Positions 12,775 to 63,076 of a stretch of DNA of 64,000 nt are shown here, one piece after another (the stretch's first letter is position 1; each line of letters opens with the position of its first letter). The stretch comes from a virus, in IMG/VR virus record IMGVR_UViG_3300045988_080648; one strand, written 5' to 3'. The notes beneath the pieces were generated by a model, which was not told the origin of the DNA, ran no database searches, and was given only the letters and a program-made list of their open reading frames with translations. Both the position numbers and the translations under genes were made by a program.

Positions 12775-12841
12775 TTTGAGGTGAGTGAAACGGCTTACAC
12801 CTCGAACTAAACGGTCATTGGTTTGAATCCAATACCTACAA
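12775..12841 (+). tRNA. tRNA-like remnant. A 9-bp hairpin TTTGAGGTG...CACCTCGAA is followed by a canonical-looking T arm ATTGG-TTTGAAT-CCAAT. No acceptor pairing was found.
   Basis: Hand folding. Only the T arm is convincing. Confidence 0.15.
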
Positions 12842-12864
12842 CTAATTAAAAAAAAATAAATAAT

Positions 12865-13341: not shown

Positions 13342-13351
13342 TCTCCAATTT

Positions 13352-13425
13352 GGGGCGTCGGCTCAAGTGGTCAGCACCTGCTTTGCACGCAGGCATTCTT
13401 AGGAGTTCGAATCTCCTACGCTCCA
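13352..13425 (+). tRNA. tRNA-Ala (anticodon TGC)
   Basis: Acceptor GGGGCGT/ACGCTCC with the G3-U70 alanine identity pair. Anticodon arm CCTGC-TTTGCAC-GCAGG is identical to the E. coli tRNA-Ala arm. T arm AGGAG-TTCGAAT-CTCCT. Discriminator A. Confidence 0.75.
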
Positions 13426-13437
13426 CTATTAAACAAT

Positions 13438-13515
13438 GTGAGATTAGTGTAGTTGAAGGCGCACATCACACTTCCAATGTGAAGGCTTGCGTGGGTTTGA
13501 TTCCCACATCTCACA
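13438..13515 (+). tRNA. tRNA-Gly (anticodon TCC). 78 nt, slightly irregular, with extra nucleotides at the D/anticodon junction and in the variable region.
   Basis: Acceptor GTGAGAT/ATCTCAC (perfect 7 bp). Anticodon arm TCACA-CTTCCAA-TGTGA. T arm GTGGG-TTTGATT-CCCAC. Confidence 0.55.
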
Positions 13516-13914
13516 CTATGATAAAGCTCTAGAATACTAGTTACAGGAGCAACGTAACTTATAGGGTGCCTCTCAACGATGCATACTCGCCTATTAGGTG
13601 TCGTAGAACCTACGAACTGGAATGGTTTGATGTTTTTTGCATTCCTACAGAATCCTAAATAATAAAAATAGAGACCATGTCTCTGACAGGGACCATTCCT
13701 GGGATTCTTAATTTTTTAAACTCTCCTCCTAGATATTTTATAAGTTAAACTTTAAATTTGATTTATTATGATGAGAATTTTAAAAAGAACTTTAAAAGCA
13801 TTTAAGAAGGGTTGGATTTGGTATGTTACTCAGTATTCTAGATTATACATGCCTCCAATTATTTAATCTTATTATTTAATTTGTAAGTACCAAAGGGGTA
13901 CTTACTGATGTTCG

Positions 13915-20626: not shown

Positions 20627-21613
20627 ATGACAACAGTTTTAGGTGATAAACTCAATCAAGCTTTAGAAGCTAAGAATAATGATGTAGAAACATTTCTCTG
20701 GAAAGGTTCCAGAGAAATTGTAAATGGTGAACGCGTTCAGTCTTCCATAAAAATGGTAGATATGACTGAAGAAGAATTACGTAAGGCATATAAACATTGT
20801 GAATCAATGCTTTATAGTGATAACTATGAAAATCCTGGACGACGAGTTTTATTAGAACAGATTGAAGACCAAAGAACTCGCTGTAACGCTGAGTTGTTCT
20901 TAATTTGGTTATTATACCCAGGTGAAGGTAGTACTAGACAAGGTATTGTAAGAACTAGTTTCTTTAATATGCTTAATCAGCAGATTACTTCTCAGGCAGA
21001 ACAGTTTGCTAAAGATAATGCAGAAAGAGGTGAAGGAGAGACAAATGCTAGTGCTATTGCAGAGACTCTCTTTAAAGAATGGACTCTTAATGATATTATG
21101 AATAGTGATGAAGATTCATTTACTATGTTTGCTTCATTGCCATTATATATCGTTAGAGAAGCTTGTTTGTCTGCTTTAGGTAAATGTATTCGTAAACATA
21201 TTACTCTTACATTCATTACTGAGCTTGGATTGTGGTTTACACGTTCTGAATTATTGGAATTAAACAAGAAAAACGAGAATGGTCGTTTAGTAAATAGAAT
21301 TAAGCAAGTTGCTGAACTTCTAAATATTAAATTGAGAGACCCTAAGAATCCTGAAGACAAGAAAGGTCTTGTTTTAAAAATTGATGATAGAAAAGGCTTA
21401 ACTCTAAAAGAGTTTAGCGCAATGCTTACCTTCCGTAAGGATAAATATGATAAGCGTTATAATGATCTGACTAAAGTACAATTGGAAACCTTAAGAGATA
21501 AAGTTTTACTTCATCTTGAAAATAAGGTTAGATGGCAAGCTTCAGAGTGGGAGAAGCGTATTAAACAAATTAAAGCAGTAGCTGCTTACAATGGCTACAA
21601 GCTCTCTGATTGA
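20627..21613 (+). CDS. hypothetical protein (328 aa)
   Basis: ORF track. Confidence 0.5.
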   Translation: MTTVLGDKLNQALEAKNNDVETFLWKGSREIVNGERVQSSIKMVDMTEEELRKAYKHCESMLYSDNYENPGRRVLLEQIEDQRTRCNAELFLIWLLYPGEGSTRQGIVRTSFFNMLNQQITSQAEQFAKDNAERGEGETNASAIAETLFKEWTLNDIMNSDEDSFTMFASLPLYIVREACLSALGKCIRKHITLTFITELGLWFTRSELLELNKKNENGRLVNRIKQVAELLNIKLRDPKNPEDKKGLVLKIDDRKGLTLKEFSAMLTFRKDKYDKRYNDLTKVQLETLRDKVLLHLENKVRWQASEWEKRIKQIKAVAAYNGYKLSD

Positions 21614-21722
21614 AGGAGAATTATTTCATAAAATCACTAGAGATGAACGACAAGAAGAGTGTCGTAGAAAATGGATAAAAAATCGTTGTGTTGGGACAAT
21701 AGTCGCGTCCACTGGCTTTGGT
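21591..21722 (+). CDS. SF2 (DEAH-type) helicase, exon 1. It ends inside Walker A: ...VASTGFG then the intron.
   Basis: The translation ends ...NRCVGTIVASTGFG and then runs into non-protein-like sequence. Motif I resumes in exon 2. Confidence 0.55.
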
Positions 21723-22036
21723 ACTGTAAAAGCGGGTAATATATCTGTTAATTACAATGCCGTTCTGTTCAGGAATGGGCAGAATTATCATCGAGCAAAA
21801 TCGGTGAAAGCCCTATAGAGGGTAATACCGAGGTAATAGAAGAAATTAAAGAATCTTCTACACCGTACAGCATAGAGAATGAAACTAATAAATAGTTGAA
21901 CTAGATTATTTTCATTAGAATATAAATTCTCCACGAGTGTTCGATACCCCAACTGAAATAAGTGGGTAAAAATTTATGCGGGGCTTATTAGTAATAGTAA
22001 GAAGTATAGATAAAAAGCTATACGATAACAAGACCG
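21723..22036 (+). mobile_element. ORF-less group I-type intron (about 314 nt) interrupting the helicase Walker A codon boundary G|K. The 5' exon ends in T and the intron ends in G (omega-G) at 22036.
   Basis: Splicing in silico joins ASTGFG to KSRIGLNCIKTVLKHFPQYRVLIIVPTETLQKQW, giving GFGKS plus motif Ia. The 3' part of the intron shares blocks CACGAGTG(T/C)(T/C)CGA(T/C)AC and ATAGATAAAAAGCT(A/G)TA(C/T)GATAACAA with the introns at 45780-45909 and 48510-48625. Confidence 0.55.
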
Positions 22037-23194
22037 AAATCCAGAATAGGACTAAATTGTATTAAAACAGTGCTAAAACACTTTCCACAATATCGAGTAC
22101 TAATAATTGTGCCAACAGAAACTTTACAAAAACAATGGTGTGGTTATATAGATTCTAATGGACTAGGATTAAATTGTGATGTACAAATAATAAACACTGT
22201 AATAAAACATCCTGCCAAATATGATCTTTTAGTACTGGATGAAGCGCATAGATATGCAGCTGAGACTTTTGTAAGATTATTTGAAGTAGTAAAATACCAA
22301 TTTATCTTAGGTCTTACAGCTACTTTTGAGCGTCTTGATGGAAGAGATAAAATATTAGCAAAATACTGTCCAGTAATTGATACTATTGATATTAATACTT
22401 GTCTTGAAAATGGTTGGGTTAGCCCATATAAAGAATATCTAGTCTTAGTAAATGTTGATGATTTAGAAGAATATGAAAAAATAAATAAAGAATTCATTTC
22501 TCATTTTGAATTCTTCGGATTCTCTTGGGAGTTAGTTAATAAATTAGCTGGTCCTATGGGTTGGCGAAATAAATTGCTCCTAAGAGATTCTATGTGTAGT
22601 GACCCTGACAAGAAATCTGAAGTACTACAAAATATAAATTATCATGCTATCAGATTTTGGGCTACTATGCATGAGAAAAAAGCTTTTATTAATAATCATC
22701 CAAAGAAAATTGAAATAGTAAAGAAAATTATAGAAGCTAGAAAGGATAAAAAAATAATAACTTTTGCTAATAATATTAAAATGGCAGAAAAAATTCCTAA
22801 TGCTACTGTATATTCTAGTAGAACTTCTAAGAAAAGAAGTGCTACAGCTATTGAAGATTTTAACTCTGGAAAGATAACTTTATTATCTACAGTAAAAAAA
22901 GCTGATGAAGGACTTGATGTAAAAGGTCTTTCTGTAGCTATTATATTTGGATTAGATAGTTCAATTACTAGAGCTTGTCAACGGAGAGGAAGATCAATCC
23001 GATTTGAAAAAGGTAAGACAGCAGAGATATTCAATATAGTATTAAATAGGACTCAAGAAACTAAGTGGTTTTATGATTCTCATAAAGGAGATTCTTTTAT
23101 AACTATAGACGAATCAGAATTGGATAAAGTATTACAAGGTAAAGACTTTACTCCAGGTGAAAAGATAGTTCCTAAATTTGATTTTAGATTCTGA
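22037..23194 (+). CDS. SF2 helicase, exon 2. Motifs Ia IIVPTETL, II VLDEAHRY, III GLTATFER and VI QRRGRSIR.
   Basis: ORF track 22070-23194 extended 5' to the in-frame splice acceptor at 22037. Confidence 0.65.
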   Translation, partial: KSRIGLNCIKTVLKHFPQYRVLIIVPTETLQKQWCGYIDSNGLGLNCDVQIINTVIKHPAKYDLLVLDEAHRYAAETFVRLFEVVKYQFILGLTATFERLDGRDKILAKYCPVIDTIDINTCLENGWVSPYKEYLVLVNVDDLEEYEKINKEFISHFEFFGFSWELVNKLAGPMGWRNKLLLRDSMCSDPDKKSEVLQNINYHAIRFWATMHEKKAFINNHPKKIEIVKKIIEARKDKKIITFANNIKMAEKIPNATVYSSRTSKKRSATAIEDFNSGKITLLSTVKKADEGLDVKGLSVAIIFGLDSSITRACQRRGRSIRFEKGKTAEIFNIVLNRTQETKWFYDSHKGDSFITIDESELDKVLQGKDFTPGEKIVPKFDFRF

Positions 23195-23272: not shown

Positions 23273-23884
23273 ATGTTTGATTTAAACATTGATGAAGAAA
23301 TAACAATTTTAGAAAAATATAATATTACTCCTACTGAATTGTTTGTTGTTAAAGCTATAAATGCTTATATAGAAGATTATTCAGAAGATTATCTTCGTAG
23401 ATATTTAGCTATTGATAAAAAGTATGTAGGAAGTTTTATAGATGTACTCAAATCTTTACAAGATAAAGGTCTTATCCTTAAAAGTTATAAAATTATTCCA
23501 GGAATGAAACTAGTTCCTGAAGAAATACCATTTAATAAAAACTTCTTAAAATGTTTAGCTAAGAGTTCTTTTGAAATGGGAAAAGAACTTAGAGAACATT
23601 ATCCTAGATTTAGAAATATTAATGGATGCTTAACTAGTATGCTAGGTGTTTCTAAAAAGTTTAATAGTCTTGAAGATGCTTATAGAACTTATGGAAAGAA
23701 AATTCATTGGAATGAAGAACTTCATAAAAAGATTATTGATTTACTAGATTGGGAAGCTAATACTGATAATGGTATTATTAATTATAGCTTAGCTACATTT
23801 ATTGTAGATGAAAAATGGGAAGATCTTGAAGCTTTAAAAAATGGAGATTCAGGTATGAATTATAATTCAATCACCACTCTGTGA
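23273..23884 (+). CDS. hypothetical protein (203 aa)
   Basis: ORF track. Confidence 0.5.
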   Translation: MFDLNIDEEITILEKYNITPTELFVVKAINAYIEDYSEDYLRRYLAIDKKYVGSFIDVLKSLQDKGLILKSYKIIPGMKLVPEEIPFNKNFLKCLAKSSFEMGKELREHYPRFRNINGCLTSMLGVSKKFNSLEDAYRTYGKKIHWNEELHKKIIDLLDWEANTDNGIINYSLATFIVDEKWEDLEALKNGDSGMNYNSITTL

Positions 23885-24963
23885 GTTTAGAAAGTTTTAA
23901 ACGTTCGGTAGAGCTTGGTAGACAAGGATTTAATCAAGGATTTAGTATGGGTCTTCCTAAATTGGAAGAATTAATAGGAGGTATTACTAAAAGTACCATG
24001 ACTCTCTTATTTGCGAGTTCAGGACAAGGTAAAAGTTCATGCGTATTATATTCTTATATATATGCTCCTTTAAAAGAGCATTTAGAAGATAATAAATTAA
24101 AAATTATTTTCTTTGCTCTTGAGATGAAAGAAGACTTTATTATAGCTAAATTATTAAGTACTTATTTATATGATATCTATCATATTGTTGTAACTGCTAA
24201 ACAAATATTATCTATAGGTAAAGATTATATTTTACCTGACGATTTATATAAGTATGTACAACTAGGATATGATTGGCTAGAAAAAGTATATAAAGTACTA
24301 ACTATATACGAAGGCTCTTTTAATTCTGATAGGCTCATAAAAGTTACAATGGAAGAGCTTAAAAAAGAAGGAGAATTTATAGAGAATAAATATATTCCGA
24401 AAGACCCTGAAAAAGTAATACTTTCAGTAACTGACCATGTTGGATTGATTCAGCCATCTAATGGAAGGAATAGAAAAGGAGAAATTGATGATTATACTAA
24501 TAAATTAGTTATTATTAGAAATAAAACAGGATTATCTCCAATTATTGTTATGCAATCCAATAGAGCAGTGGCTAACATGGAAAGAAAAAAGAATGAAGCT
24601 TTCATGGAGCCAATGGTTGAGGATATTAAGGAAACGTCCACTGTTTCAGAGAATTCTGAGATTATTTTAGCTGTATATAATCCTCAAGTTGATAAAAGAA
24701 CAACTTATAGAGGTTATCAAGTTAAAGAAATGGGTTATAGATTTCGAAGTATTCTTGTACTAAAGTCAAGATATGGAGAAAATCAAGTAGCTGATTGCTG
24801 TTTCTTTGACGGAGCAGTAAATAAGTGGATGGAAATGCCTAAGCCAGAAGAAATCTTTGATTATTCTAGATATCGAGCTACAAATAACAGTTCAACAGAT
24901 AATATAATAAAGAATGAAGATAAAGATGGAAAAGTGAAAAATAAATTAGACTATAGTTTATGA
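23881..24963 (+). CDS. DnaB-like replicative helicase, RecA-like C-terminal domain (Walker A ASSGQGKSS, H1a IFFALEM)
   Basis: ORF track. Motif spacing typical of DnaB-family C-terminal domains. Confidence 0.6.
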   Translation: MSLESFKRSVELGRQGFNQGFSMGLPKLEELIGGITKSTMTLLFASSGQGKSSCVLYSYIYAPLKEHLEDNKLKIIFFALEMKEDFIIAKLLSTYLYDIYHIVVTAKQILSIGKDYILPDDLYKYVQLGYDWLEKVYKVLTIYEGSFNSDRLIKVTMEELKKEGEFIENKYIPKDPEKVILSVTDHVGLIQPSNGRNRKGEIDDYTNKLVIIRNKTGLSPIIVMQSNRAVANMERKKNEAFMEPMVEDIKETSTVSENSEIILAVYNPQVDKRTTYRGYQVKEMGYRFRSILVLKSRYGENQVADCCFFDGAVNKWMEMPKPEEIFDYSRYRATNNSSTDNIIKNEDKDGKVKNKLDYSL

Positions 24964-38159: not shown

Positions 38160-39214
38160 GAATATAAACGCCCCACATAATAGTAATATTATGTAGTAAA
38201 CGCAGAATATGCTGGAAACCCCTTAGAGCCTAAGTATACTTGAAATATTTTCAAGGATGAACAAGTCTTAGGATTGGGCAATCAGCAGACATATAAATTG
38301 TTAATTTATGTTAAAGTGTTAAGATTTATACAAGTCTTGTATATACTTAACATATATAAAATTTATGGGTCTCAGAGACTACCAATGCGCAACCTATGGG
38401 TTGATAGTATAGTCCACTCCCTTATTATTAACATAATTATTTAACAATATGAGAAAAATAACAGAAGAACGCTTTTGTGAAGTATGTGGAGTATCATCAA
38501 AATTTAAAAAAGTTAGTTTTAATAAACTTTCTGGAAAAATACTATGTGAAAAACATAGGGAACAATTTAGAAGATTTGGGGAATTTAAAGATACTAATTC
38601 AAGAGGAGTATTTGATGATAATGAAATTAGATTAAAAGATAATTTTGCGGAAATAGATACTTATGATTCCCATGGAAATATTATGGAAACATTTATTCTA
38701 GATATAGATGATGTTCCAAAATTAAAGGGTCATAAATGGAGAACTGTTTATAAAAATAATAAACCTTATTTATTTACAGGAAACCAGAAAAAAGAACGTA
38801 TCTATTTTCATAGGTTGGTACTTCCTACTGATAAACAAGTTGACCATATTAGTGGAGATACTCATGATAATAGAAAATGTAATCTTAGAGAAGTAACTAT
38901 TCAAGAAAATATGTTAAACCTACAAAAGAAATCTAATAATACTTCGGGTATTCGAGGTGTATCTTTTGATAAAAAACGGAATAGGTGGAAAACTGATTTT
39001 ACTTTTCAGAAACAACGTTATTATTTAATGAATAGAGACTTAAAAGAAGAAGCCGTTTATCAAAGGTATCTTTGTGAGAAATTAGTATTAAAAAATTTTC
39101 GGAATGATGCTCTATATAATTCTTATATTGATAAAATTTCAGAGGAACGTAAAGCTGAAATAAAAGAATATGTTATTAATAAATTAAATATCTCGAAAGA
39201 GAGGGTATAAAAGG
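38160..39214 (+). mobile_element. group I-type intron 2 in nrdD (about 1055 nt) carrying an HNH-AP2 homing endonuclease gene. The 5' exon ends in T and the intron ends in G.
   Basis: A GC-richer structured 5' part (AAACGCCCCACATAA...) is followed by the HEG. The exon 2 / exon 3 junction reconstitutes the glycyl-radical motif RIIGY. Confidence 0.55.
38449..39210 (+). CDS. intron-encoded HNH homing endonuclease with a C-terminal AP2 DNA-binding domain
   Basis: ORF track. HNH motif VDHISGDTHDNRKCNLREVTIQENM. AP2-like SGIRGVSFDKKRNRWKTDFTFQKQRYY. Confidence 0.7.
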   Translation: MRKITEERFCEVCGVSSKFKKVSFNKLSGKILCEKHREQFRRFGEFKDTNSRGVFDDNEIRLKDNFAEIDTYDSHGNIMETFILDIDDVPKLKGHKWRTVYKNNKPYLFTGNQKKERIYFHRLVLPTDKQVDHISGDTHDNRKCNLREVTIQENMLNLQKKSNNTSGIRGVSFDKKRNRWKTDFTFQKQRYYLMNRDLKEEAVYQRYLCEKLVLKNFRNDALYNSYIDKISEERKAEIKEYVINKLNISKERV

Positions 39215-43792: not shown

Positions 43793-44186
43793 AACATGGT
43801 GGAAGGTTAGGAAATGGTTTAAAATTCCTAAACCTTCCATTTATTTTGGACACATAATATCAGGGCTACCTTGTAGACTTCCTAATAAATGGATTAAGTT
43901 ATATAGTTATGACGTTACTTGGAAAGATAAATATGATAGTCCTAGATTTGAATTTGTTCCTCAAATAAATTTAGAATTATTTAAGATATATCAGTTATTA
44001 TTAACTTTTCAAACTAATAATAATGATATATATTGGGAGACAATCTTAGATATAATTTATTATAATAAATCTCTTAAAGAAGCTATAAATAAAAATACTT
44101 GGGAGAATTATAATAAAGAAAAAATAAACGCTTTTACTAAGGGATTTCTTACTCCTAAAGGAGAAAGATTATATTTATATGAGTAA
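43770..44186 (+). CDS. hypothetical protein (138 aa)
   Basis: ORF track. Confidence 0.45.
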   Translation: MLMENPLRTWWKVRKWFKIPKPSIYFGHIISGLPCRLPNKWIKLYSYDVTWKDKYDSPRFEFVPQINLELFKIYQLLLTFQTNNNDIYWETILDIIYYNKSLKEAINKNTWENYNKEKINAFTKGFLTPKGERLYLYE

Positions 44187-44418
44187 TGAATTAAATTATA
44201 TAGATAATTTCGATGGGTCTCCAGAAAGACCTAATATGATAGATAATCCTTTTGTAAAAGGAAATAATTGGTTAAGATTTATTGAAGAAGAGAAACAGAT
44301 AACATTAGGAGAGGAGCAATTACAAGTATTGCATGATATAGTTGATATTATATTAAATAATTTCAAACAAAAGGACTTTTTAAATCCTATAAATTTAGGA
44401 GGAGCTGCTGGTTGTGGT
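44179..44418 (+). CDS. Dda/RecD-like SF1 helicase, exon 1. It ends inside Walker A: ...INLGGAAGCG then the intron.
   Basis: ORF track 44179-44424. Walker A is completed by exon 2 (GCG|KS). Confidence 0.55.
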
Positions 44419-45909
44419 AATTAATAAAAATACTCTATTATAAAATATCTTTTAAAAAATTTTGATTTATAGGTGGGCATATATAATAGCTATACATAAA
44501 ATGTATAGTAAAATGAGTAAAATTACAGTACCTGAATCAGATTTAATTCTTATAAAAAAATATTATGAGGAAGATAATAAAAAAGTATCAGAGATAGTAA
44601 GATTATTAAATAATAAATATTCTTCCGGAGTAATTATTACTAGATTAAAAAATCTAGGAATATATCAAAGTACTAGAGGTAAAATACCAGATAATATTGG
44701 TAATAATATTATAGCAGAATATAATAAGGGCAATAGTATAGTAAGTTTGTCTAAACAATTTGGATATTCTACTACTAAAATATCTACATATTTAAAAAAT
44801 AATGATATTATTGTTATAAATAGACAAAATATTATAAATTATGATTTGGATAAAGATATTATACCCTTATATAATCAAGGATATAGCCTTACTAAATTAG
44901 CCGAGATATTTCATACTAATAGAAATAATTTAGCTAAAAAATTAAAAGCTAGAGGAATTGAAATAATCAATCATCAAAATGAAACTAAATTTAATGAACA
45001 TATCTTCGATGTTATAGATACAGAAGATAAGGCTTATTGGTTAGGTTTTATATTTGCTGATGGTTATATTGACAGTAGTCCTTTAGAAAAAAATAAAAAA
45101 TCTAGATACGGTTTTGAAATATCTTTAAAAGGTTCTGATGCTGAGCATCTACATAAATTTAATGAATTTATGGGTCATAATAAAGATAATGTAAAAATTG
45201 GTTATGTAAATTGTAATGGTAAACGTTGTGTTAGATGTAGATGGTATGTAGCGAATAAACACTTATGGAATACCTTAAATAGTCTAGGATGTACTCCTAG
45301 AAAAAGTTTAACACTAAAATTTCCAGAAAAAAGAATTTTTCAAGATATTTCTCTTATAAGACATTTTATTAGAGGATACTTTGATGGTGATGGATGTTTA
45401 AGTTATTGTAAAAGTATTAAAACTTTTTCTCCAATTTGTACATTTTTAGGTACTAAAGAATTTTTATAGGTACTATGTAGTTATTGTGAATTACTAACAG
45501 ATAGAACTATAAATCATAAAAGTAATGAAAATGTATATGAGGTATCTTGTACTCACAATATAGCCAGTAAATTATTACATTATTTATATGATGATGCAAA
45601 TATTTATTTACAAAGAAAATATAATAGAGCAATATTTTTATGGAATGGTTGCCGGTCACTTGAGAAATTAAGTGAATTTTTACAAACCAATATCGGTGAA
45701 GGCTGTGATGCTAATACCGAGATAACTACAGAAACTAAAGAGTCTGTAGCATCGTAGAGCGTAGAACTTGAACCTGAGAAATCAGAATAAAATAGTTCCA
45801 AGAGTGGTTTGCCCTCAGCACATAAAGGTGGAGGTGAATATGTACGCCGAGCTATAGCAAATAAGAAACTATAGAAATACAGATAAAAAGCTGTATGATA
45901 ACAAAACTG
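44419..45909 (+). mobile_element. group I-type intron (about 1.49 kb) in the Dda-like helicase, carrying a LAGLIDADG homing endonuclease gene. The 5' exon ends in T and the intron ends in G (45909).
   Basis: Splicing joins LGGAAGCG to KSLCTSFLLEWINTKGFPVKLCAPTHKAA (Walker A plus motif Ia). The 3' intron blocks are shared with the introns at 21921-22036 and 48510-48625. Confidence 0.6.
44462..45469 (+). CDS. intron-encoded LAGLIDADG homing endonuclease (two LAGLIDADG motifs: LGFIFADGYI and GYFDGDGCL). It ends at an in-frame TAG, and the same frame stays open to 45757 with homologous C-terminal sequence. It may therefore be decaying or need read-through.
   Basis: ORF track. The post-TAG continuation VLCSYCELLTDRTINHKSNENVYEVSCTHNIASKLLHYLYDDANIYLQRKYNRAIF... 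aligns with the C-terminus of the LAGLIDADG protein at 56423. Confidence 0.6.
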   Translation: MIYRWAYIIAIHKMYSKMSKITVPESDLILIKKYYEEDNKKVSEIVRLLNNKYSSGVIITRLKNLGIYQSTRGKIPDNIGNNIIAEYNKGNSIVSLSKQFGYSTTKISTYLKNNDIIVINRQNIINYDLDKDIIPLYNQGYSLTKLAEIFHTNRNNLAKKLKARGIEIINHQNETKFNEHIFDVIDTEDKAYWLGFIFADGYIDSSPLEKNKKSRYGFEISLKGSDAEHLHKFNEFMGHNKDNVKIGYVNCNGKRCVRCRWYVANKHLWNTLNSLGCTPRKSLTLKFPEKRIFQDISLIRHFIRGYFDGDGCLSYCKSIKTFSPICTFLGTKEFL

Positions 45910-47139
45910 AAGTCGCTTTGCACTAGCTTCCTTTTAGAGTGGATAAATACCAAAGGCTTCCCAGTTAAGTTATGTGCTCCTACTCATAAAGCAGCTTTAG
46001 TACTTAAAAAGTATAATAATTACGATGCAACTACTCTTCATAGTATGTTAGCATTATCTCCTAAAGTAGATATTCTTAAACTGGATATCAGAGAATTAAG
46101 ATTCTTTGCTACTAATGATAAAAAAATGTCTATACCATATGATGGAATTGTCATTTGTGATGAAGCATCTATGGTAAGTAGTGATTTATATGATTTATTA
46201 GTAGAAAAATGTAGCTTAATGGGTACTATGATTATCTTTTGTGATGATTATGCTCAGTTAAACCCAGTGAAAGAAGATGAACAATCAAAAGTCTTTAGAT
46301 GTAAACATCAATTTAGATTGACTAAAATATACAGACAATCTGAAAAAAGTGGTCTTAAAGGCATTTTACAGACGCTTAGAGAGTCTCCAATACAACAGTG
46401 GGATAACTGTGAAGGTGAGGATGGAAGTCTCTTTGTAGAGTCTAAATTAGAAAATTTTTGTAGAAAAGCAGTTTCGGAATTTAAATACGAGATAGAAGCT
46501 AAGGATATATTACATACTAAAATTCTAGCTTATACTAATGCTCGTGTAAATAACTATAATAAAGCTATTCATAAACTTTTATGGAATGATAATAATTTTC
46601 TTCATAAAGGAGAAATTTTAATGGCTTATGAGAATTTCAAAAAAGATGGTTATGAAATAACTAATTCTATGGATTATATAGTAGAGGAATTTACTCCTAC
46701 TATTATTGATGTTCCATATTATACTAAGTGTAAAGGATACTTAGTTAAACTATATGATGAATATAATAACATATCTTTTGAAATTCCACTATTAGCTCCA
46801 GAAGAATGTAATGAAGATTTAGCTATAGTTATAGAAACTATAAGAACTGAAGCAATAAATTCTCAAGGATACGATAGAAAAAAGAAGTGGGGAATATATT
46901 ATGCTTTAATGGGAAGTTTTTGTACATCTAAAGATCTATTTACTGATGGTAGATGTATAAGAAAAGCTACTTTTAAATACGGATATGCTATTACTACTCA
47001 TCGTTCTCAAGGGTCTTCTTATGATAATGTATTTATAGATATGAAAGATATCTTTAGAGCTAAAGATAAAGAGACTCTTAGGCAATTACAATATGTAAGT
47101 ATGTCTAGAACTAGAAGCGATATAACTATGCTATTATGA
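45910..47139 (+). CDS. Dda/RecD-like SF1 helicase, exon 2 (motif Ia LCAPTHKAA, Walker B IVICDEASMV, C-terminal motif TTHRSQGSSYDNVFID)
   Basis: ORF track 45895-47139, trimmed to the splice acceptor. Confidence 0.65.
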   Translation, partial: KSLCTSFLLEWINTKGFPVKLCAPTHKAALVLKKYNNYDATTLHSMLALSPKVDILKLDIRELRFFATNDKKMSIPYDGIVICDEASMVSSDLYDLLVEKCSLMGTMIIFCDDYAQLNPVKEDEQSKVFRCKHQFRLTKIYRQSEKSGLKGILQTLRESPIQQWDNCEGEDGSLFVESKLENFCRKAVSEFKYEIEAKDILHTKILAYTNARVNNYNKAIHKLLWNDNNFLHKGEILMAYENFKKDGYEITNSMDYIVEEFTPTIIDVPYYTKCKGYLVKLYDEYNNISFEIPLLAPEECNEDLAIVIETIRTEAINSQGYDRKKKWGIYYALMGSFCTSKDLFTDGRCIRKATFKYGYAITTHRSQGSSYDNVFIDMKDIFRAKDKETLRQLQYVSMSRTRSDITMLL

Positions 47140-47405
47140 TTGATGTATTATTGATTCATAATAATCCAGCATTAGTAGAATTGTTTAAAAACTCCTATAA
47201 TGGAGAAGCTTTTTTACAATTCTTAGATAGAGGTTCTAAAGTAGAACGTAGTAAAGCTTATAAGATACAGCAAGAATGGGGTAGTAGTCAAACCCCATTT
47301 GCACTAGTGAAAAAAGATGATAAGGTTATTAAAGCCTTTTATGCAGAAGATAAAAACAATGTAATTTCTAAATTAATATCTTATTTAAATGAGCACAATT
47401 ATTAA
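47136..47405 (+). CDS. hypothetical protein (89 aa)
   Basis: ORF track. Confidence 0.45.
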
Positions 47406-47691
47406 TGTTCCAGTAATTAACAATTCTAAAAATCCACTTCCTAAGTATGAAACAACTGAAGCTGCTGGTATGGATTTACGAGCTAGTTTAACTAATCTTT
47501 CCCCTAAATTTTTATTTAATGCTTATATAGAAAGTGGTAAAGTAATCATTGAGCCTAGAGGTAGAGCATTAATTCCTACAGATTTACATATGTCTATCCC
47601 AGAAGGTTATGAACTACAGATTAGACCAAGAAGTGGACTGGCATTAAAATATGGTATTACAGTATTGAATACTCCTGGAACTATTGACGCT
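47389..47691 (+). CDS. dut: dUTPase, exon 1 (ends ...LNTPGTIDA inside motif III)
   Basis: ORF track 47389-47706. dUTPase motifs AAGMDLRA and [10 protein letters not shown]. Confidence 0.65.
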
Positions 47692-48625
47692 GAAAAATAT
47701 TTTTAAAATTCCTTGGGACAATCGATAAAATAGCTATATTATAAAATATAATTATCAGATAATTTTATTAATTAATAATTATAATATAGTTATGAGTGAA
47801 TGTAAATATTGTAAAAAAGAATTTATTCCAAATGAGTCTGCTAGACAATTTCCTAAAACATTTTGTTCTTATTCTTGTTATGAACATTGGTTGAAAGAAA
47901 ATAAAGAACCAAATTGTGTATGTGCTTATTGTAAAATTCCTATGTATAGAAAGCCTTCCCAAATTAAAAGAGCTGTGCATGGAGTAACTTGCTCTAAAGA
48001 GTGTGCTAATAAATTAAAAGCTATTTATTATTCTGGAAAAGGTAATCCTCAATATGGATTAATAGGAGATAAAAATGCTTCATTTAAAGGTATAGAAATA
48101 CTAAGTAATTATGGGTATATTCTTGAGTATGCCCCAAATCATCCTTTTCCTCATAATAAAAGCGTAAAGGGTACTAGAGTGCTTCAACATAGATTAATAA
48201 TAGAGCGAAATGCTGATAAATTTGATGATAAGTATTTCATAATCATAAATAATAAGAAATATTTAAAATTAGAATATGAAGTACATCATAAAAACGAAAT
48301 TAAAACAGATAATCGCTTAGAAAATTTACAAATAGTAACAGCTAATGAACATAGGAAAATTCATAATAATACTAAGAAAATTATAAGAGATGAAAAAGGT
48401 CAAATAATCGGCGTCAAAAAATCGGACAAAATCGGGGAAGGCTGTGATGCTAATCCCGAGCTAACTAATTAAATTACGAAAGGTTAATTAGTAGTGTAAC
48501 GCATAGTAGTTGAATAAATATAATACTACCACGAGTGCCCGACACTTATGTGAAAAGATATGCTGAACTATAGCAAATAAGAAGCTATAGAACTATAGGA
48601 TAAAAAGCCTATAGGGTAACAAATG
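47692..48625 (+). mobile_element. group I-type intron in dut (about 930 nt) carrying an HNH endonuclease gene. The 5' exon ends in T and the intron ends in G.
   Basis: Splicing restores motif III as [15 protein letters not shown]. Confidence 0.6.
47792..48472 (+). CDS. intron-encoded HNH endonuclease (Cys-rich Zn-binding N-terminus; HNH motif EVHHKNEIKTDNRLENLQIVTANEHRKIH)
   Basis: ORF track. HNH motif. Confidence 0.65.
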   Translation: MSECKYCKKEFIPNESARQFPKTFCSYSCYEHWLKENKEPNCVCAYCKIPMYRKPSQIKRAVHGVTCSKECANKLKAIYYSGKGNPQYGLIGDKNASFKGIEILSNYGYILEYAPNHPFPHNKSVKGTRVLQHRLIIERNADKFDDKYFIIINNKKYLKLEYEVHHKNEIKTDNRLENLQIVTANEHRKIHNNTKKIIRDEKGQIIGVKKSDKIGEGCDANPELTN

Positions 48626-48811
48626 GATTATACAGGAAATATAGGAATTATTCTCATAAATCATGGAGAAAAACCGTTTATGGTAGAAAATGGAGACAGA
48701 ATTGCACAAGGAGTATTTGCTAAAATAGTTAATGCTGAATTTCAGTCAGTAGATTCTTTAGAAAAAACTGAAAGAGGTGATGGAGGTTTTGGACATACTG
48801 ATGTAAAATGA
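48626..48811 (+). CDS. dut: dUTPase, exon 2 ([28 protein letters not shown]...)
   Basis: ORF track 48623-48811 minus the ATG that belongs to the intron 3' end. Confidence 0.6.
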
Positions 48812-54604: not shown

Positions 54605-55825
54605 ATGATTTATTTAGTTACCAAGGTTAAAGCTTTATTCAAATCTTCTAAATATGAATGTATTTCTGTAGAAAAAAGTAAAGAAATTATTAATTCTATG
54701 AAAAAAATTAGAGGATTAGATACTGAGACTATGGGATTAAATCCTCATACTAAAGCATTATTAACAGTTCAGATAGGTACTAAAGAAAATCAAGTAGTAA
54801 TTGATTGCACTACTATAAATATTTGGGAATATAAAGATATATTAGAAGATTCCAATATTTTATATATCTTAGCTAATGCTAAATTTGATATCCAATTCTT
54901 CTTTAAACATAACATTATATTATCTAAAGTATGGGATGTAATGTTAGCTGAAAAGATTAGATATTTAGGATATCCTAAAGGTAGTTTCCATGCTGACTTA
55001 AAGACCCTTGAATACAAATACCTTAATAAATATATGGATAAAACTGTTCGAGGTAAAATTACTAAAGTTGGTCTAACTGAAGAAGTAATAGTTTATGCAG
55101 CTAATGATGTAGTAGATTTGGAAGATTTAATGAATGCCCAAATAAAAGCTTTAGAAAAAGAAGAGTTGGTAAAGGCAGTACAATTAGAGAATAGATTTGT
55201 TATTCCATTAGCTTATATGGAATGGTGTGGAGTAAAATTAGACGTAAAAAAATGGAAAGCTAAAATGGTAAAAGATGCTAAACGTTTAAAGATTGCTCTA
55301 ACTAAATTAAATGATTGGGTAGTAAAACATTATGGAAAAGACTCTAGATTTACTAAAGTAGATTTACAAGGAGATTTATTTTTAGGATTTAATACTGACC
55401 CACAGTGTGCTATAAATTGGAATAGTGCAGCTCAAGTAATTCCATTATTCAAAGCTATTGGAATAAATACTTCTACTATAGATAGTAAAACAAGGAAATT
55501 AAAAGATTCTGTAGATGCTAAATTATTAGAGCCTCAGGCTAAGGATTTTGAAATTCTTCCTATTTATCTAGATTATAAAGAAGCTCAAAAAGTATGCTCT
55601 ACTTATGGACAAAACTGGCTAGACCAAATAAATCCTGAAACTGGTAGAATATATACTAAATTTAATCAGTTAGGCACTAATACTGCCAGAATATCTAGTG
55701 GTGGAAAAGATAAAAATGCTCAAATAGAATATGTAAATTTTCTTAATCTTCCAGCAGATCCAGAAACTAGAAGTTGTTTTATCGCAGAGAAAGGTAACTC
55801 TTGGATTTCCATAGACTACTCGGGT
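54605..55825 (+). CDS. polA: family-A DNA polymerase, exon 1 (3'-5' exonuclease motifs LDTETMGL, ANAKFDIQFF, YAANDV; polymerase motif TGRIYTKFNQLGTNTARISS; ends in motif A ...ISIDYSG)
   Basis: ORF track 54605-55834, trimmed to the inferred splice donor. Confidence 0.65.
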
Positions 55826-56146
55826 AAAAAATAAACATATAAACTATAACATTTTTATAGTATATTTTGAATAATCTATCCGTAAATAAATCAGAGGATG
55901 TGTTAAAAATGTTTTATAGTTTATATCATAATGCTCATTATTTTCTAAAAAGAAAATATGAAAAATTTGGCCCCCTTGTAAGGAAACTTACAGGTGAAAA
56001 CCTCGTAAATTCAGTTAATGAACGGGCATTATCAAAGACTGAGCCAAGCCTTATAATAAAGGAAGGTGCAGAGACTAGAAACGAGGAGCCTAAAATAAAT
56101 GATTAAATTTATCATGGCTGAGGTATAGTCCAGCGTGTTTACGTAG
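55826..56146 (+). mobile_element. group I-type intron 1 in polA (about 320 nt). It contains only a 79-aa ORF (55867-56106) with no recognisable endonuclease motif. The 5' exon ends in T and the intron ends in G (the G of TAG).
   Basis: Splicing joins DYSG to QESFIMASISNDKALIHELMEGSGDLHSLTA, which is motif A and its continuation. Confidence 0.5.
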
Positions 56147-56343
56147 CAAGAAAGTTTCATTATGGCTTCTATCTCTAATGATAAAGCTTTAATACATGAA
56201 TTAATGGAAGGAAGTGGAGATCTACATTCTCTAACTGCCTATATGAGTTATCCTGATCAAATACCTAGAGATACAAAAATAACAGAAATTAAAGAAAAGT
56301 ATCACCATCTTAGACAAGAAGCCAAAGGAATAGAATTTGCCAT
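56147..56343 (+). CDS. polA: polA exon 2 (motif B region ...RQEAKGIEFAI)
   Basis: ORF track 56162-56353, with boundaries re-set from the splice-site reasoning. Confidence 0.5.
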
Positions 56344-57606
56344 TAATCCTTAAATTATTGCAATTTTTATTTTGATATAATTCGCTATAAACTATATTAC
56401 TATTAATAAATATTTTAGTAATATGGATATAGAAAAAGAATTAAAAATCAAAAGCTTGTATGAAAAAGATACAAAGATTAGTGAAATTTTAAAGATTTGT
56501 AAATGTAGTAGTGCTACAGTAAATAAAGTAAGAGAAAAATATAATTTACCTAAAAGAAGGAATTCCCCCTCAAAGATTCCTATAAATGAATCTTTAGTAG
56601 TAAAATTATATACCGAAGGAGTAATATTAACTGAAATTACAAAAACTTGTCATTGCAGTACCAACACTGTCTCAGCAATACTAGATAAATATAATATTCC
56701 AAAACGTTCTCAGAGAATAAATAAAAAACCTAATAAGGATTTAAGTAAATTTATGGATTTAACTTCTCCAGAAACTCAATATTGGATAGGATTTATATGT
56801 GCCGATGGCAATATAAATTATAATCCAGAAAAAAGAGCTTATAAAGTTTCTCTATTTAGTAAGGATGAAGAAGTCATAATTAAATTTATAAAATATTTTG
56901 GAGAAAATACAGTTTGTAGAAGTGACAGACCTACAGGTATAAAAGAAGCCTATATATGCTCTAAAGAACTTTGTGAATATTTTATTAATGTATTAAATAT
57001 TACTCCTAATAAGTCTCTTACATTAAATCCTAATATTGAGTATACTAACAATTTTATTTTAGGCTATTTTGATGGAGACGGAAGCATTAGAAACAGTTCA
57101 GAAAAACAAATTAGATACGAGTGTAATATTACTTGTGCTAGTAAAATATTTTTGGATAAAATAAAAACTATACTTGATAAAAATGGTATTTATTCTATTA
57201 TTTATCAACATACTGATTGTAATGCTTACAAAATTAGAATAGATAGAAAAAGTGAATCTGAAAAATTTTATCATTTTTTATACAAAGATGCAGTAGTTTG
57301 TTTATCAAGAAAATTGAAAAACTTTGTGGCACTCTATGGAAACATAGAGAATGAAAAATTGGGTGAATTGCAGGAACTTAAGGAAAATCTGCAGCCAAGC
57401 CAACCTTTAACAAAGTTGGAAGGTTCAACGACTAACTCTTGAAACTTCGTAAGAAGAATATAATAGAGACACGAGTGCCCAACACCTAAACTATAAAGCA
57501 AGGTGATGAAATAGTCTAGCCTATATGGTAACATATAGAGTCTCAGATAAAGAGCTGAGAGTTAATACAAGCGAAATTATGGTGGTGATTTTAACACTAT
57601 TCATCG
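56344..57606 (+). mobile_element. group I-type intron 2 in polA (about 1.26 kb) carrying a LAGLIDADG endonuclease gene. The 5' exon ends in T and the intron ends in G (57606).
   Basis: Splicing yields EFAINKGISIEEAKKIYENYMSGFSGLAKYQEY, the canonical motif B plus downstream helix. The 3' part contains ACACGAGTGCCCAACAC and TATGGTAACATATAGAG blocks shared with other introns. Confidence 0.5.
56423..57442 (+). CDS. intron-encoded LAGLIDADG homing endonuclease (motifs IGFICADGNI and GYFDGDGSI)
   Basis: ORF track. Confidence 0.7.
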   Translation: MDIEKELKIKSLYEKDTKISEILKICKCSSATVNKVREKYNLPKRRNSPSKIPINESLVVKLYTEGVILTEITKTCHCSTNTVSAILDKYNIPKRSQRINKKPNKDLSKFMDLTSPETQYWIGFICADGNINYNPEKRAYKVSLFSKDEEVIIKFIKYFGENTVCRSDRPTGIKEAYICSKELCEYFINVLNITPNKSLTLNPNIEYTNNFILGYFDGDGSIRNSSEKQIRYECNITCASKIFLDKIKTILDKNGIYSIIYQHTDCNAYKIRIDRKSESEKFYHFLYKDAVVCLSRKLKNFVALYGNIENEKLGELQELKENLQPSQPLTKLEGSTTNS

Positions 57607-58042
57607 AAACAAAGGTATCTCTATAGAAGAAGCTAAAAAAATATATGAAAATTATATGTCTGGTTTTTCAGGATTAGCTAAATATCAAGAGTATTGTAGA
57701 AAGATAGTGATGGAAAAAGGCTATATACTTTTAAATCCTATAAGCAAATATAGAGCACATATATATGACTTTGAATCTCTACGTTCAATGCAAGAAAAAA
57801 TGCAAGATAGGGAATTTTGGAAGTATTATAGAGAAATGAAACGAGAATCTCCTAACTGTGATACAGTACAAGAAGTACGAGATTTCTTTAAGAAAAAAGG
57901 TGAATGTGAAAGGAATAGTATAAATTATAGAATACAACACACTGGAGCTTTATGTTATAAAGTAAGTATGATTTATTTCTTTAAATGGATAGTAGAAAAT
58001 AATCTTTTTAATAAGGTTTTAATTACTATTACTCCCTACGAT
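57607..58042 (+). CDS. polA: polA exon 3 (GYILLNP...ERNSINYRIQHTGA...; ends ...ITITPYD immediately before the Glu of motif C)
   Basis: ORF track 57656-58048, with the frame open from 57590. Confidence 0.5.
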
Positions 58043-58898
58043 AAATAATCTTGTCGTAGTAAAACGATGTTAATTGCTTGGAACTCCTAAAGATTTAATT
58101 ACTAAATTATTGAAATAATAAACTAGTAAAAATATTAAATATGATTTTACCTCAGTTAAAAGAAATGGACAATAAGCAGCTTTATAATTTTACAAGAGAA
58201 CAAACTCAAGTATTTTTAACAGGATTGCTAGGTGATGGATGTATATCCACTACAAATAGTGGTAGTTATATTTATACCACAAATTGTAAACATCTTGAAT
58301 ATTTAGAATTTAAAAAGAAATTATTAGGTAAAGGAAATATTAAACTTCAAAAAAGAAATGGCTATCCTATATATACTATGTATGGAGGAGCTTACCCAGA
58401 ATTATATGAGTTTAAAGAATTTACTGTTCAAGATGTTATTGAAAACTTAGATTTACTTGGGTTAGCATTATGGTTTTATGATGATGGCAGCCTTCATAAA
58501 AGAGATTTATATTATAATTTAAATACTCAAAAGTTCCCAAAATATATACAAGAAGGAATTTTTATTCCATGGTTTAATTCCTTAGGCATTAAAGCTAATT
58601 TAAGACATGATACAAAAAGAGGAAAAGAATTGTATTATTTAGGAATTAATAAATATGAAGGAGCTAATATTATTAGTGAAATACTATCACGTTATCCATT
58701 AGATTGTTACTCTTATAAATTATGGAGTTCAGAGACTATCCTTAAATGGAGTAAGCTGCAAGAGCAGGTGAAAAGCATCGATGAAAATCTTACTAATAGG
58801 CAGTTAGCTTATAAGTGGAGATTTTTATAAGATATAGTCCGAACCTATATGAAAGTATAGGAGAATATATGGAATCGATATATTCGTAACAATATATG
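58043..58898 (+). mobile_element. group I-type intron 3 in polA (about 856 nt) carrying a LAGLIDADG endonuclease gene. The 5' exon ends in T and the intron ends in the G of ATG (58898).
   Basis: Splicing yields ...VLITITPYDEINCEVPIEIAEKV..., which aligns to motif C LLQVHDELVLEVP with Tyr in place of His. It contains the ATAGTCCGAACCTATATGAAAGTATAGG block. Confidence 0.5.
58141..58830 (+). CDS. intron-encoded LAGLIDADG homing endonuclease (motifs LTGLLGDGCIS and LWFYDDGSL)
   Basis: ORF track. Confidence 0.65.
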   Translation: MILPQLKEMDNKQLYNFTREQTQVFLTGLLGDGCISTTNSGSYIYTTNCKHLEYLEFKKKLLGKGNIKLQKRNGYPIYTMYGGAYPELYEFKEFTVQDVIENLDLLGLALWFYDDGSLHKRDLYYNLNTQKFPKYIQEGIFIPWFNSLGIKANLRHDTKRGKELYYLGINKYEGANIISEILSRYPLDCYSYKLWSSETILKWSKLQEQVKSIDENLTNRQLAYKWRFL

Positions 58899-59437: not shown

Positions 59438-59656
59438 ATGGCTAGTAATTCACCAACGTTAATGCAATCTGAAGAGAGATTTTTAGATAATCTTAACACA
59501 GATATTCCTTTGAAAGAAGAAGATTATACAATATGTTTTTGTATAAGTAAACAAATTTCTACAACTAATATTGAAGATGTTTGTAAATCTTTGCAAAATC
59601 GTTTTTTAAGTGAAGGATGGAGCATTGATGATTTTGATTCAGAAAAGAATGAGTAA
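59438..59656 (+). CDS. hypothetical protein (72 aa)
   Basis: ORF track. Confidence 0.4.
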   Translation: MASNSPTLMQSEERFLDNLNTDIPLKEEDYTICFCISKQISTTNIEDVCKSLQNRFLSEGWSIDDFDSEKNE

Positions 59657-60083
59657 ATTAATTATAACAAGGGGTATACCTTCATCGGGTAAAACCTTTT
59701 GGGCTAAGCAATGGGTTCTTGAAGACCCTGAACATAGAGTTAGAATTAATCAAGATGATATTCGACTTATGCTTGGTAAATATTGGGTTCCAAGTAGAGA
59801 GAAATTAGTACAAGAAATACAATTCGATGCAATGATTGAAGCATTAAATAGAGAATTTGATGTAGTTATTGATAATACTAATTTAAATAAAAAAGTCTTA
59901 GAAGGATTTGACCGTTTAATTAAAACTTTTGAAGATTGCGAAATAGAATATAAAGATTTTTTCGACACTCCTTTATCTGTATGTATCGAACGTGATAAAA
60001 ATAGAGATTTGCAGGTTACAGAGAAAGTTATTAGAAATTTTTATAACAATTATAAAGATATATATCCTTTAAATGGTAGATAA
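59649..60083 (+). CDS. polynucleotide 5'-kinase, P-loop kinase domain only (Walker A ITRGIPSSGKT; similar to the T4 Pnk N-terminal domain). Likely start MSKLIITRG...
   Basis: ORF track 59610-60083. P-loop plus downstream RINQDDIR pattern typical of Pnk/adenylate-kinase-like folds. Confidence 0.55.
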   Translation: MSKLIITRGIPSSGKTFWAKQWVLEDPEHRVRINQDDIRLMLGKYWVPSREKLVQEIQFDAMIEALNREFDVVIDNTNLNKKVLEGFDRLIKTFEDCEIEYKDFFDTPLSVCIERDKNRDLQVTEKVIRNFYNNYKDIYPLNGR

Positions 60084-62448: not shown

Positions 62449-63076
62449 TTGAAGTATTGTTGTGTATGTAATAGTTCTAATAAGGTTTGTAATACCCCTA
62501 TAGGTCTATTATGTGGAAAACATTATATGCAATATCGAAGATATGGCAAGGTATTAAATAGAACTAAATATGATCCTAATGAAATTATATTAGAATCGGA
62601 TATGGCTAAAATAGTTCTATACAATAAAAATGGAGATAAAATTGCAGAAGCTTTAATAGATACTAAAGATATAGGAAAAATATCTTCAAACAAATGGTGT
62701 ATAGATAAAAATAACTATGTAAAAAATTCAAAACAAGAATATTTACATAGAGTTATTGGGAGCACCTAAAGATATGTGTGTAGACCATATTAATGGAAAT
62801 ACCCTAGATAACAGGAAAAATAATCTTAGAATTTGTACAAATAGAGAAAATATAAGTAATAGAACTAAATTAGGAACTAATAATACTTCAGGAATATTAG
62901 GAGTAAGGTTTGATAATAGAAGAAATAAATGGTATGCAGATATTCAGTATAAAGGTAAATGTATATTTCTTGGATATTTTAATATAAAGGAAGATGCTAT
63001 AAAAGCTAGAATAGATGCTGAGAAATTATATTTTAAGGAATTTAAATCAAAAATATTAAACAATGAAATTAATTAA
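62449..63076 (+). pseudogene. free-standing HNH-AP2 homing endonuclease gene split by a frameshift into two overlapping ORFs (62449-62769 and 62756-63076)
   Basis: The first ORF ends ...EYLHRVIGST. The second starts MGAPKDMCVDHINGNTLDNRKNNLRICTNRENISN (HNH) followed by an AP2 domain. The intact homolog at 38449 shows these are one protein. Confidence 0.55.

Follow-up and report, generated by a model that had tools for sequence, protein, structure and literature searches.

In a 64,000-nucleotide (nt) stretch of viral DNA (IMG/VR record IMGVR_UViG_3300045988_080648; hereafter the window, meaning the whole stretch), a superfamily 1 (SF1) helicase gene is split inside its Walker A motif (P-loop) by an insert that carries an open reading frame (ORF) for a LAGLIDADG protein. 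We consider it very probable that this insert is a mobile group I intron whose ribozyme and LAGLIDADG lineage are both fitted to one codon junction, where the last Gly of Walker A meets its Lys. The coordinates of all features are collected in Table 1.

Read without splicing, 44179-47139 comprises a short ORF that ends in ..NLGGAAGCGN*, a 335-codon ORF with LAGLIDADG motifs, and a 414-codon ORF containing KSLCTSFLLEW. When 44179-44418 is joined to 45910-47139, the product is 489 aa long and its Walker A (GGAAGCGKS) is complete. The 3' end of exon 1 is GGA GGA GCT GCT GGT TGT GGT (GGAAGCG), the first part of the motif, and the protein encoded by exon 2 starts with KSLCTSF..LCAPTHKAA. Since the joined product matches Pfam AAA_30 (E 6e-20), AAA_19, UvrD_C_2 (E 4e-9) and PIF1, the gene split at 44418|45910 is an SF1 Dda/RecD-like helicase. 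The gene is uninterrupted in MT835492.1 (GenBank, a human-gut phage ~97% identical here): the 1491 nt are absent, and its alignment with the window breaks precisely at 44418|45910. It is also uninterrupted in 13 further near-identical IMG/VR contigs (95-98% protein identity, MT835492.1 included), and two others (L013 and L016) have the same insert as the window. The junction, as placed here by comparison, rests on these uninterrupted alleles and not on inference alone. The initial annotation, made from the window only, had split the helicase within Walker A between GGAAGCG and KSLCTSF, and the empty alleles bear it out.

Two more genes in the window, for a superfamily 2 (SF2) helicase and a dUTPase, contain inserts that have their 3' halves in common with the SF1 insert. 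Because Rfam gave only noise, we built a ribozyme model by hand and subjected it to a covariation test. The model (P3, P4, P5, P6/P6a, P7, P7.1, P8, P9 and P9.1) was derived from the three window inserts, and the test set comprised 44 diverse copies (alignment A3). RNAalifold, run on these copies, independently recovered P2-P6a, P7.1, P8 and P9, with compensatory changes in 42 of 50 pairs. For the full model including the P3/P7 pseudoknot, 95.0% of cells were paired versus 32-41% with the 3' partners slid by 1-3 columns, and double-sided changes were found in 49 of 61 pairs (observed values reached by 0 of 500 shuffles). P7 is 100% paired, with a swap between GC and AU (27/17). At junctions fixed without a pattern search (SF1, SF2, DnaB-like and dUTPase), T is the last base of the 5' exon and G that of the intron; the SF1 intron is bounded by AAUUAA..ACUG. 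Judged by covariation, the intervening sequences are group I introns of an IA-like type, in which a P7.1 hairpin separates P7 from P3'.

P1 was located via the dUTPase intron, in which exon UUGACGCU pairs perfectly with GGCGUCAA, just 5' of P3 and 3' of the ORF. At the homologous place in the helicase introns GCCG pairs with exon UGGU, and the intron's first 7 bases pair with the 7 that precede GCCG. The position of the guide, 3' of the ORF, places this ORF in the P1 loop. Distal P1 is compensatory among the forms (SF1 AAUUAAU/AAUGGUU; SF2 long UUCAAUU/AAUGGAA; SF2 short ACUGUAA/UUACAAU), and its pairing reaches 62% versus 49% for shuffled partners. The minimum free energy fold of an ORF-less SF2 copy has the same P1 and core (z-score -5.6). 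The guide ..TTGCCG.. is nearly invariant across copies, as (TT)GCC(G), and is complementary to the ligated GGU|AA (P1 plus a 2-bp P10). Early P1 candidates near the 5' end of the SF1 intron (e.g. GCUAUA at ~44490) were dropped in favor of the 8-bp dUTPase P1 and the homologous GCCG with its compensatory distal pairs.

Three other accounts of the interruption were rejected. An intein is incompatible with the stop two codons past exon 1 (GGT AAT TAA) and with stops in all frames of the insert outside the endonuclease ORF. A group II intron does not agree with the boundaries, which are not GUGYG..AY, with an ORF-less form of only 314 nt, or with an ORF of the LAGLIDADG type, and no Rfam group II match was obtained. 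A split gene without splicing would require a Walker A cut between Gly and Lys to work as two peptides, which it cannot.

That the SF1 insert contains a LAGLIDADG gene, as proposed initially, is borne out by its ORF, motifs and fold match. The motifs are LGFIFADGYI and IRGYFDGDGC, and the columns G178..D183 G184 and G288..D291 G292 D293 G294 are invariant in 39 homologues. The window protein reaches 20.1 bits on Pfam LAGLIDADG (cut-off 22.5); relatives lie above the cut-offs of LAGLIDADG_1/_3 (P0002, 25.4; the SF2-site enzyme, 33.5; P0014, on both models). The family comprises 3675 database proteins at E<=1e-10, many of which have precomputed LAGLIDADG_1/_3 and HTH_7 matches. A fold search was used because the endonuclease profile gave nothing meaningful against PDB sequences. 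The AlphaFold2 (AF2) model (predicted local distance difference test, pLDDT, 83.6) has the alpha-beta-beta-alpha-beta-beta-alpha fold twice, and Foldseek against the PDB returned bI3 maturase (2ab5), I-AniI (1p8k) and the I-OnuI family (E 3.5e-9 to 5e-7, probability 1.00). From sequence and model together, the ORF product is a predicted monomeric two-domain LAGLIDADG homing endonuclease, for which we infer the cleavage specificity discussed below. P2-P6 encode the final ~35 residues, and the ORF stops at a TAG in J6/7; this core-encoded tail is disordered in the AF2 model. The unrelated HNH ORF of the dUTPase intron also runs in frame into a ribozyme core (48430-48472; 45690-45757 for the LAGLIDADG ORF), and the two ends encode nearly the same peptide (..IGEGCDANPE.. 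and ..IGEGCDANTE.., respectively).

The SF2 helicase (Pfam ResIII and Helicase_C) is interrupted at the same point: the insert separates the final Gly of Walker A from the Lys that follows. This agrees with the early proposal that both inserts follow the last Gly codon GGT and precede the Walker Lys, the SF2 one at 21722/21723. BLASTP between the SF1 and SF2 helicases detected no similarity (best E 0.79). The SF2 gene is uninterrupted in 12 related contigs; six alleles have a short ORF-less insert of 314-386 nt, the window's form, and three (MT835492, L028 and L029) a 1212-nt insert with an intact LAGLIDADG ORF. The window's own SF2 intron is without an endonuclease gene, a correction to an earlier account. 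The SF2-site ORF of the sister phages is 51% identical to the window's SF1-insert ORF over 293 aa (E 2e-94). Counted from the start of the guide sequence, the short and the long SF2 intron have 97.6% identity. Because their 5' ends are unrelated, each building its own P1 extension (window 21723-21758 versus L002 724-1650), the short intron is not a simple deletion product of the long form.

The conserved blocks noticed initially in the 3' halves of the SF1 and SF2 introns correspond to an alignment of 259 nt with 64.9% identity, in which a 76-nt block reaches 71% and a 42-nt block 83%; the introns share a 24-mer, and 0 of 100 shuffles gave one. The link drawn from this held in part: the cores are related, but SF1-SF2 similarity (65%) is no closer than that of SF1 to the dUTPase intron (63%). 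The specific tie among P-loop sites is the LAGLIDADG lineage plus the GCC guide sequence, not similarity of the ribozyme core. Aligned around the two insertion points, the homing sites are similar, with 13 of 16 nt common in -11..+5 (CTGGyTkTGGT|AArTC) and just 4 of 15 in +1..+15. The two targets have the P-loop half in common (AA.TC and 10 of 15 positions upstream); their downstream halves are specific to each gene. As for the enzymes, those of the SF1 and SF2 sites are 64% identical N-terminally, up to the second LAGLIDADG motif, and 28% in the C-terminal domain; for two SF2-site enzymes from distant phages the values are 65% and 56%. This domain pattern suggests re-specialization of one endonuclease domain with the host gene.

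We searched IMG/VR with an alignment of three endonucleases, found >553 relatives and sampled the best 80 loci. The same ribozyme lies directly downstream of 76 of these 80. With the ribozyme 3' end taken as the splice site, 3' exons start with Lys at 65 of the 82 cores with a defined 3' end and with K[ST] at 48; among non-redundant insertion sites, 44 of 61 3' exons start with Lys and 34 with Lys-Ser/Thr. Most sampled 3' exons open AAR-(A/T)CN, the Lys-Ser/Thr of Walker A, and where the 5' exon was found the junction reads ..G-x-G|K-S/T. The joined host proteins belong to ResIII/DEAD/Helicase_C (several helicases, one on jumbo-phage contigs), DnaB_C, AAA, AAA_5 (with CbbQ_C) and AAA_24, which makes six ATPase families counting AAA_30 of the SF1 helicase. 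The lineage is large and occurs in gut phages and in others, and some family members are on 358-366 kb contigs. In an independent ENA/Logan sample all relatives (6/6) were at Walker A (3 SF1, 2 AAA, 1 DnaB_C); one of the six, P0004, is 73% identical to the SF1 enzyme and sits in the P-loop of an AAA ATPase. Two IMG/VR loci, L054 and L055 (3300029720_000001 and 3300045988_161452), are identical in 5' exon and intron and differ in the 3' exon, which encodes an SF2 helicase (KTRVAIIAIK) in the former and an AAA_5-like protein (KTSLIEQIAS) in the latter; the switch may stem from recombination between intron copies, or the assembly may have produced a chimera by way of the repeated intron.

The logo of 30 curated junctions, for which 5' splice sites beyond this phage lineage came from a pattern-guided search requiring T at -1 and a Gly motif, has GG at -9/-8, T at -4, GGT|AA, R at +3, A/T at +4 and C at +5. 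GGTAA occurs 125 times in the window, and hence the guide alone cannot give specificity. The pattern GGnnnnGGTAAR[AT]C is found once uninterrupted, at Walker A of the AAA gene, which is occupied in relatives; both split helicase sites fit it once rejoined. A small P-loop gene at 59610-60083 (GIPSSG|KTF), also uninterrupted, has GGT|AAAACC, which fits the core of the site consensus, and is a candidate naive target. Overall, the survey found Walker A introns in further ATPases (DnaB-like, AAA, AAA_5 and AAA_24). The view that related introns home into the shared P-loop of two non-homologous helicases is supported by the endonuclease identity across helicases that BLASTP does not connect, and the view that the target is a conserved nucleotide-binding motif rather than a gene is supported by recurrence at Gly|Lys in at least six ATPase families.

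Within this phage lineage four P-loop genes (AAA, SF2, DnaB-like and SF1) are polymorphic for the intron family, with occupancy states at different sites mutually independent. The SF1 site is empty in 14 alleles and occupied in 3. Synonymous differences immediately beside the site go perfectly with occupancy. At the SF2 site the flank is AAA TCC in 9/9 occupied alleles, and AAG AGC or AAG ACG in the 11/11 empty alleles listed. The DnaB-like flank is AAA TCA AGT in 4/4 occupied and AAR AGT in all empty alleles of the close population (13/13); L034, which is more distant, has AAA TCA although empty. Most empty SF1 alleles have GGC, not GGT, at -1, and four have the permissive GGT. Other polymorphisms in the flanks are shuffled between occupied and empty classes. 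The flank signature fits co-conversion, endonuclease-resistant alleles, or both, which the data cannot separate. P10 was ruled out as the cause of the TCC-versus-AGC difference, as only AA/UU can pair.

The intron lies in phase 0 between GGU (the last Gly) and AAR (Lys), and we propose that RNA splicing restores GxxxxGK[ST]. The ribozyme would need GGU upstream (guide GCC, U.G wobble) and AA downstream (P10 with UU), and would supply the remainder of P1 from its own 5' end; because it needs nothing else, splicing from any GGU|AAR junction would be expected with the guide unchanged. The endonuclease lineage would read roughly GGnnn(T)GGT|AAR(A/T)C, that is, DNA encoding G-x-G-K-S/T. Within one gene, homing would consist of cleavage of the empty allele during co-infection, followed by repair from the occupied allele. 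Occasionally the element would move to the P-loop of another ATPase, after which one endonuclease domain would re-specialize for the new gene-specific half-site. We lean modestly towards a wider proposal, that the lineage is co-adapted to a protein motif. Its guide would be cut to the Gly-Lys junction, with one endonuclease domain on the P-loop half-site and the other exchangeable, and it could colonize essentially any phage Walker A ATPase gene. The Gly wobble base and the serine of Walker A (TCN versus AGY) would become sites of an arms race in synonymous codons, and in TAG-recoding phages TAG would limit the full-length enzyme to late infection.

Several points weigh against a lineage fitted to the Gly|Lys junction. 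Rfam (RF00028 and related models) matched neither helicase insert at the gathering threshold or at E<=10, the 314-nt copy included, which we read, given the covariation result, as limited sensitivity of the models for this lineage. Splicing itself is deduced from DNA sequence. About one quarter of sampled sites are not Gly|Lys, and a number of Gly|Lys sites lie outside Walker A (KD.., KK.., KY..; ..GETVRG|KDSDSQF..; a second G|K in AAA_24). The sample consists of the closest relatives of P-loop-site enzymes, so that the P-loop share does not extend to all LAGLIDADG introns, and the GGT of the site logo was partly imposed by the search pattern. The endonuclease tree, in which host-gene classes are interleaved in a way that suggests several switches between them, is only a rough neighbor-joining tree, and we do not lean on it. 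AGY at the serine is not a universal block to occupancy: as a general rule its resistance was abandoned, L084 and L115 being occupied with AGC/AGT. Finally, the SF1 ORF has an in-frame TAG, and activity of its product would depend on TAG decoding; a search with ARAGORN of the window and of the complete MT835492 sequence detected no suppressor tRNA for TAG.

This TAG is the basis of a doubtful but possible alternative, in which codon 319 is a nonsense codon, the SF1 endonuclease is dead, and the intron is a decaying relic that is vertically inherited and spliced. Under the standard code the product ends at 45469 and, in the AF2 model, lacks half of the second domain (beta3-beta4 and the helices at its C terminus). 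P0002, an 89% identical homologue that lies in an SF1 Walker A and has an open 414-codon frame, encodes Glu (GAG) at codon 319, one substitution away. Like the negative suppressor search, the presence of the intron in only 3 of 17 SF1 alleles, alongside the four persisting empty alleles with GGT, fits such decay. Against a relic stands the minus strand of MT835492 at 63.7-121 kb (late genes; L122 and L123), which is open only with TAG as sense (ORFs of 3401, 1781 and 1558 codons among others). Every one of the three SF1 intron copies also has the TAG at codon 319 and continues in an unbroken frame behind it. The public gene call for the SF1-intron ORF (P0001, a 344-member cluster) likewise reads both TAGs as Gln. 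On these data we rate an enzyme that is active when TAG is decoded somewhat above a dead one.

Targeting at the RNA level, by reverse splicing through the (UU)GCC guide into GGU|AA of an mRNA with the endonuclease as a passenger, seems very unlikely. It would account for the near invariance of a guide complementary to the ligated junction and for ORF-less copies at the SF2 and DnaB sites, but five nt cannot explain the Walker A restriction: among all the GGTAA pentamers of the window only P-loop sites are used. Conserved positions also lie outside the reach of the guide (-9/-8 GG, +4 A/T, +5 C), the endonuclease diverges in its C-terminal domain along with the host gene, as expected if a protein reads the site, and no reverse transcriptase turned up in the loci examined, where no dedicated search was made. 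Least credible is coincidence, i.e. independent arrivals of a common ribozyme family at a Walker A that is merely conserved coding sequence, without motif-level targeting: the SF1 core resembles the dUTPase intron (62.8%) and the SF2 intron to about the same degree, the phage is intron-rich, and homing endonucleases in general favor highly conserved coding sequence, but the SF1- and SF2-site endonucleases are homologous while that of the dUTPase intron is an unrelated HNH enzyme, the enzyme-ribozyme pair recurs at the identical Gly|Lys position across ATPase families with GCC conserved, and P0004 places a close relative of the SF1 enzyme in an AAA P-loop.

The dUTPase intron, with its HNH gene and non-P-loop site, shows that members of the ribozyme family also occur away from P-loops; the dUTPase gene is uninterrupted in L124. 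Elsewhere in the window, a family A DNA polymerase gene (within 54605-58830) is in at least three pieces (54605-55834, 56162-56353 and 57656-58048), with LAGLIDADG ORFs or fragments between or after them (55867-56106, 56423-57442 and 58141-58830). None of these inserts matches the ribozyme family of the P-loop introns, and the ORF at 56423 is 27% identical to the SF1-intron enzyme. A 68-nt repeat (71% identity) links 38933-39000 and 62877-62944, inside ORFs 38449-39210 and about 62756-63076, which may be further free-standing or intron-borne nuclease genes. The tRNA clusters of the window (12391-13516: Asn, Thr, Ala, Gly) and MT835492 (11783-13885: Asn, Asp, Met, Tyr, Ala) differ. Assignment of the phage to the crAss-like group failed, the sole link being an 84-nt match inside an endonuclease gene; a 677-aa ORF matched unrelated phage groups.

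Table 1. Positions in the window of the split genes, their introns and the elements of the SF1 intron (HTH, helix-turn-helix)
Feature	Position	Strand	Remarks
SF1 helicase exon 1	44179-44418	+	ORF; ends with the match to the uninterrupted allele in MT835492/L001
SF1-gene group I intron (predicted)	44419-45909	+	1491 nt; bounded by empty-site alleles; core backed by covariation
SF1 helicase exon 2	45910-47139	+	begins AAG TCG (Walker A Lys-Ser)
P1 5' strand (SF1)	44415-44425	+	exon UGGU and intron AAUUAAU; pairs with 45644-45654; U.G wobble at splice site
LAGLIDADG homing endonuclease ORF (predicted)	44513-45757	+	in P1 loop; 414 codons; three N-terminal HTH modules, two LAGLIDADG domains
In-frame TAG, codon 319	45467-45469	+	inside helix 315-324 of second LAGLIDADG domain (AF2 model)
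Internal guide region (SF1)	45644-45654	+	AAUGGUU (P1 distal strand / P10), then GCCG (45651-45654), which pairs with exon UGGU
Ribozyme core (SF1)	45656-45909	+	covariation model; terminal G at 45909
P2	45656-63/45668-75	+	SF1 core
P3	45683-89/45805-11	+	SF1 core
P4	45693-98/45715-20	+	SF1 core
P5	45701-03/45710-12	+	SF1 core
P6	45721-23/45751-53	+	SF1 core
P6a	45726-33/45742-49	+	SF1 core
P7	45759-63/45843-47	+	SF1 core
P7.1	45764-68/45794-98	+	SF1 core
P8	45814-16/45832-34	+	SF1 core
P9	45852-58/45868-74	+	SF1 core
P9.1	45877-82/45891-96	+	SF1 core
SF2 helicase exon 1	21591-21722	+	ends ACT GGC TTT GGT (ASTGFG)
SF2-gene group I intron (predicted)	21723-22036	+	314 nt; ORF-less; same family; guide GCCG from 21759
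SF2 helicase exon 2	22037-23194	+	begins AAA TCC AGA (KSR; KSRIG..)
dUTPase-gene intron (predicted)	47692-48625	+	934 nt; third ribozyme-family member; gene 47389-48811 split at GTIDA|DYTGN
HNH ORF in dUTPase intron	47792-48472	+	ORF
dUTPase intron guide	about 48410-48417	+	8 nt, GGCGUCAA; retargeted; perfectly complementary to own exon
AAA gene	6302-7456		empty in window; occupied in L056, L058, L097
DnaB-like gene	23881-24963		empty in window; 14 empty and 4 occupied contigs, one of the occupied ORF-less

Mobile introns are normally portrayed as gene-specific parasites; here the recognition unit appears to be a two-codon junction in the most widespread nucleotide-binding motif. Such a lineage would account for many "fragmented ATPase genes" in gut-phage metagenomes that Rfam-based annotation misses. 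For the clustering of inteins in P-loops, ease of ectopic homing competes with selective retention as an explanation, and the two become testable in a phage system with empty, occupied and putatively resistant alleles, in which synonymous switching of the serine codon is a possible route of resistance against homing. A natural LAGLIDADG series with one half-site conserved and the other re-specialized would also be useful for understanding and engineering meganuclease specificity.

Among known systems, phage group I introns (T4 td/I-TevI, nrdB and nrdD; SPO1 I-HmuI; Twort; Bastillevirinae) likewise combine an IA-type ribozyme in an essential DNA-metabolism gene with an endonuclease, presence/absence polymorphism and co-conversion-like flanks (in part PMC11878797). 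Each of them, however, is tied to one gene and site, with a guide complementary to a gene-specific exon, whereas the P-loop element has a guide reduced to GCC (+UU), occupies one motif position in many ATPase genes, and bears its ORF in the P1 loop and in frame through P2-P6. In crAss-like Delta/Zeta groups and Jug jumbo phages of the human gut, many group I introns in core genes and late-gene stop recoding have been described (PMC7886860, PMC12880540); those papers count introns and list host genes and give no motif-level insertion rule. The literature consulted, including the group I intron database paper and the Bastillevirinae intron paper, describes no P-loop-targeting group I introns; such absence is no proof of novelty, and the family is apparently undescribed. 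A mobile group I intron with a LAGLIDADG gene is itself known, and the unusual feature is a ribozyme guide and an endonuclease that both match the Walker A Gly|Lys junction. I-AniI, bI3 maturase and I-OnuI-type enzymes, the best Foldseek matches, share the two-domain fold and are encoded by group I introns, but identity is only 12-21%, and the SF1 enzyme adds N-terminal HTH_7-type modules (three) and a disordered tail encoded by the ribozyme. The closest analogue is the group of P-loop inteins, whose "classic" site lies between the Walker A Lys and Ser/Thr in TerL, DnaB, MCM, RFC and others (PMC5050341, PMC4760082). Like the present element they are selfish, often carry LAGLIDADG domains and recur in Walker A of non-orthologous ATPases. 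Unlike it, they splice as proteins and sit one codon downstream, at K|T/S, whereas the element described here would be spliced as RNA, at G|K. The intron lineage would represent an RNA-splicing counterpart to the long-known and poorly explained clustering of inteins in P-loops.

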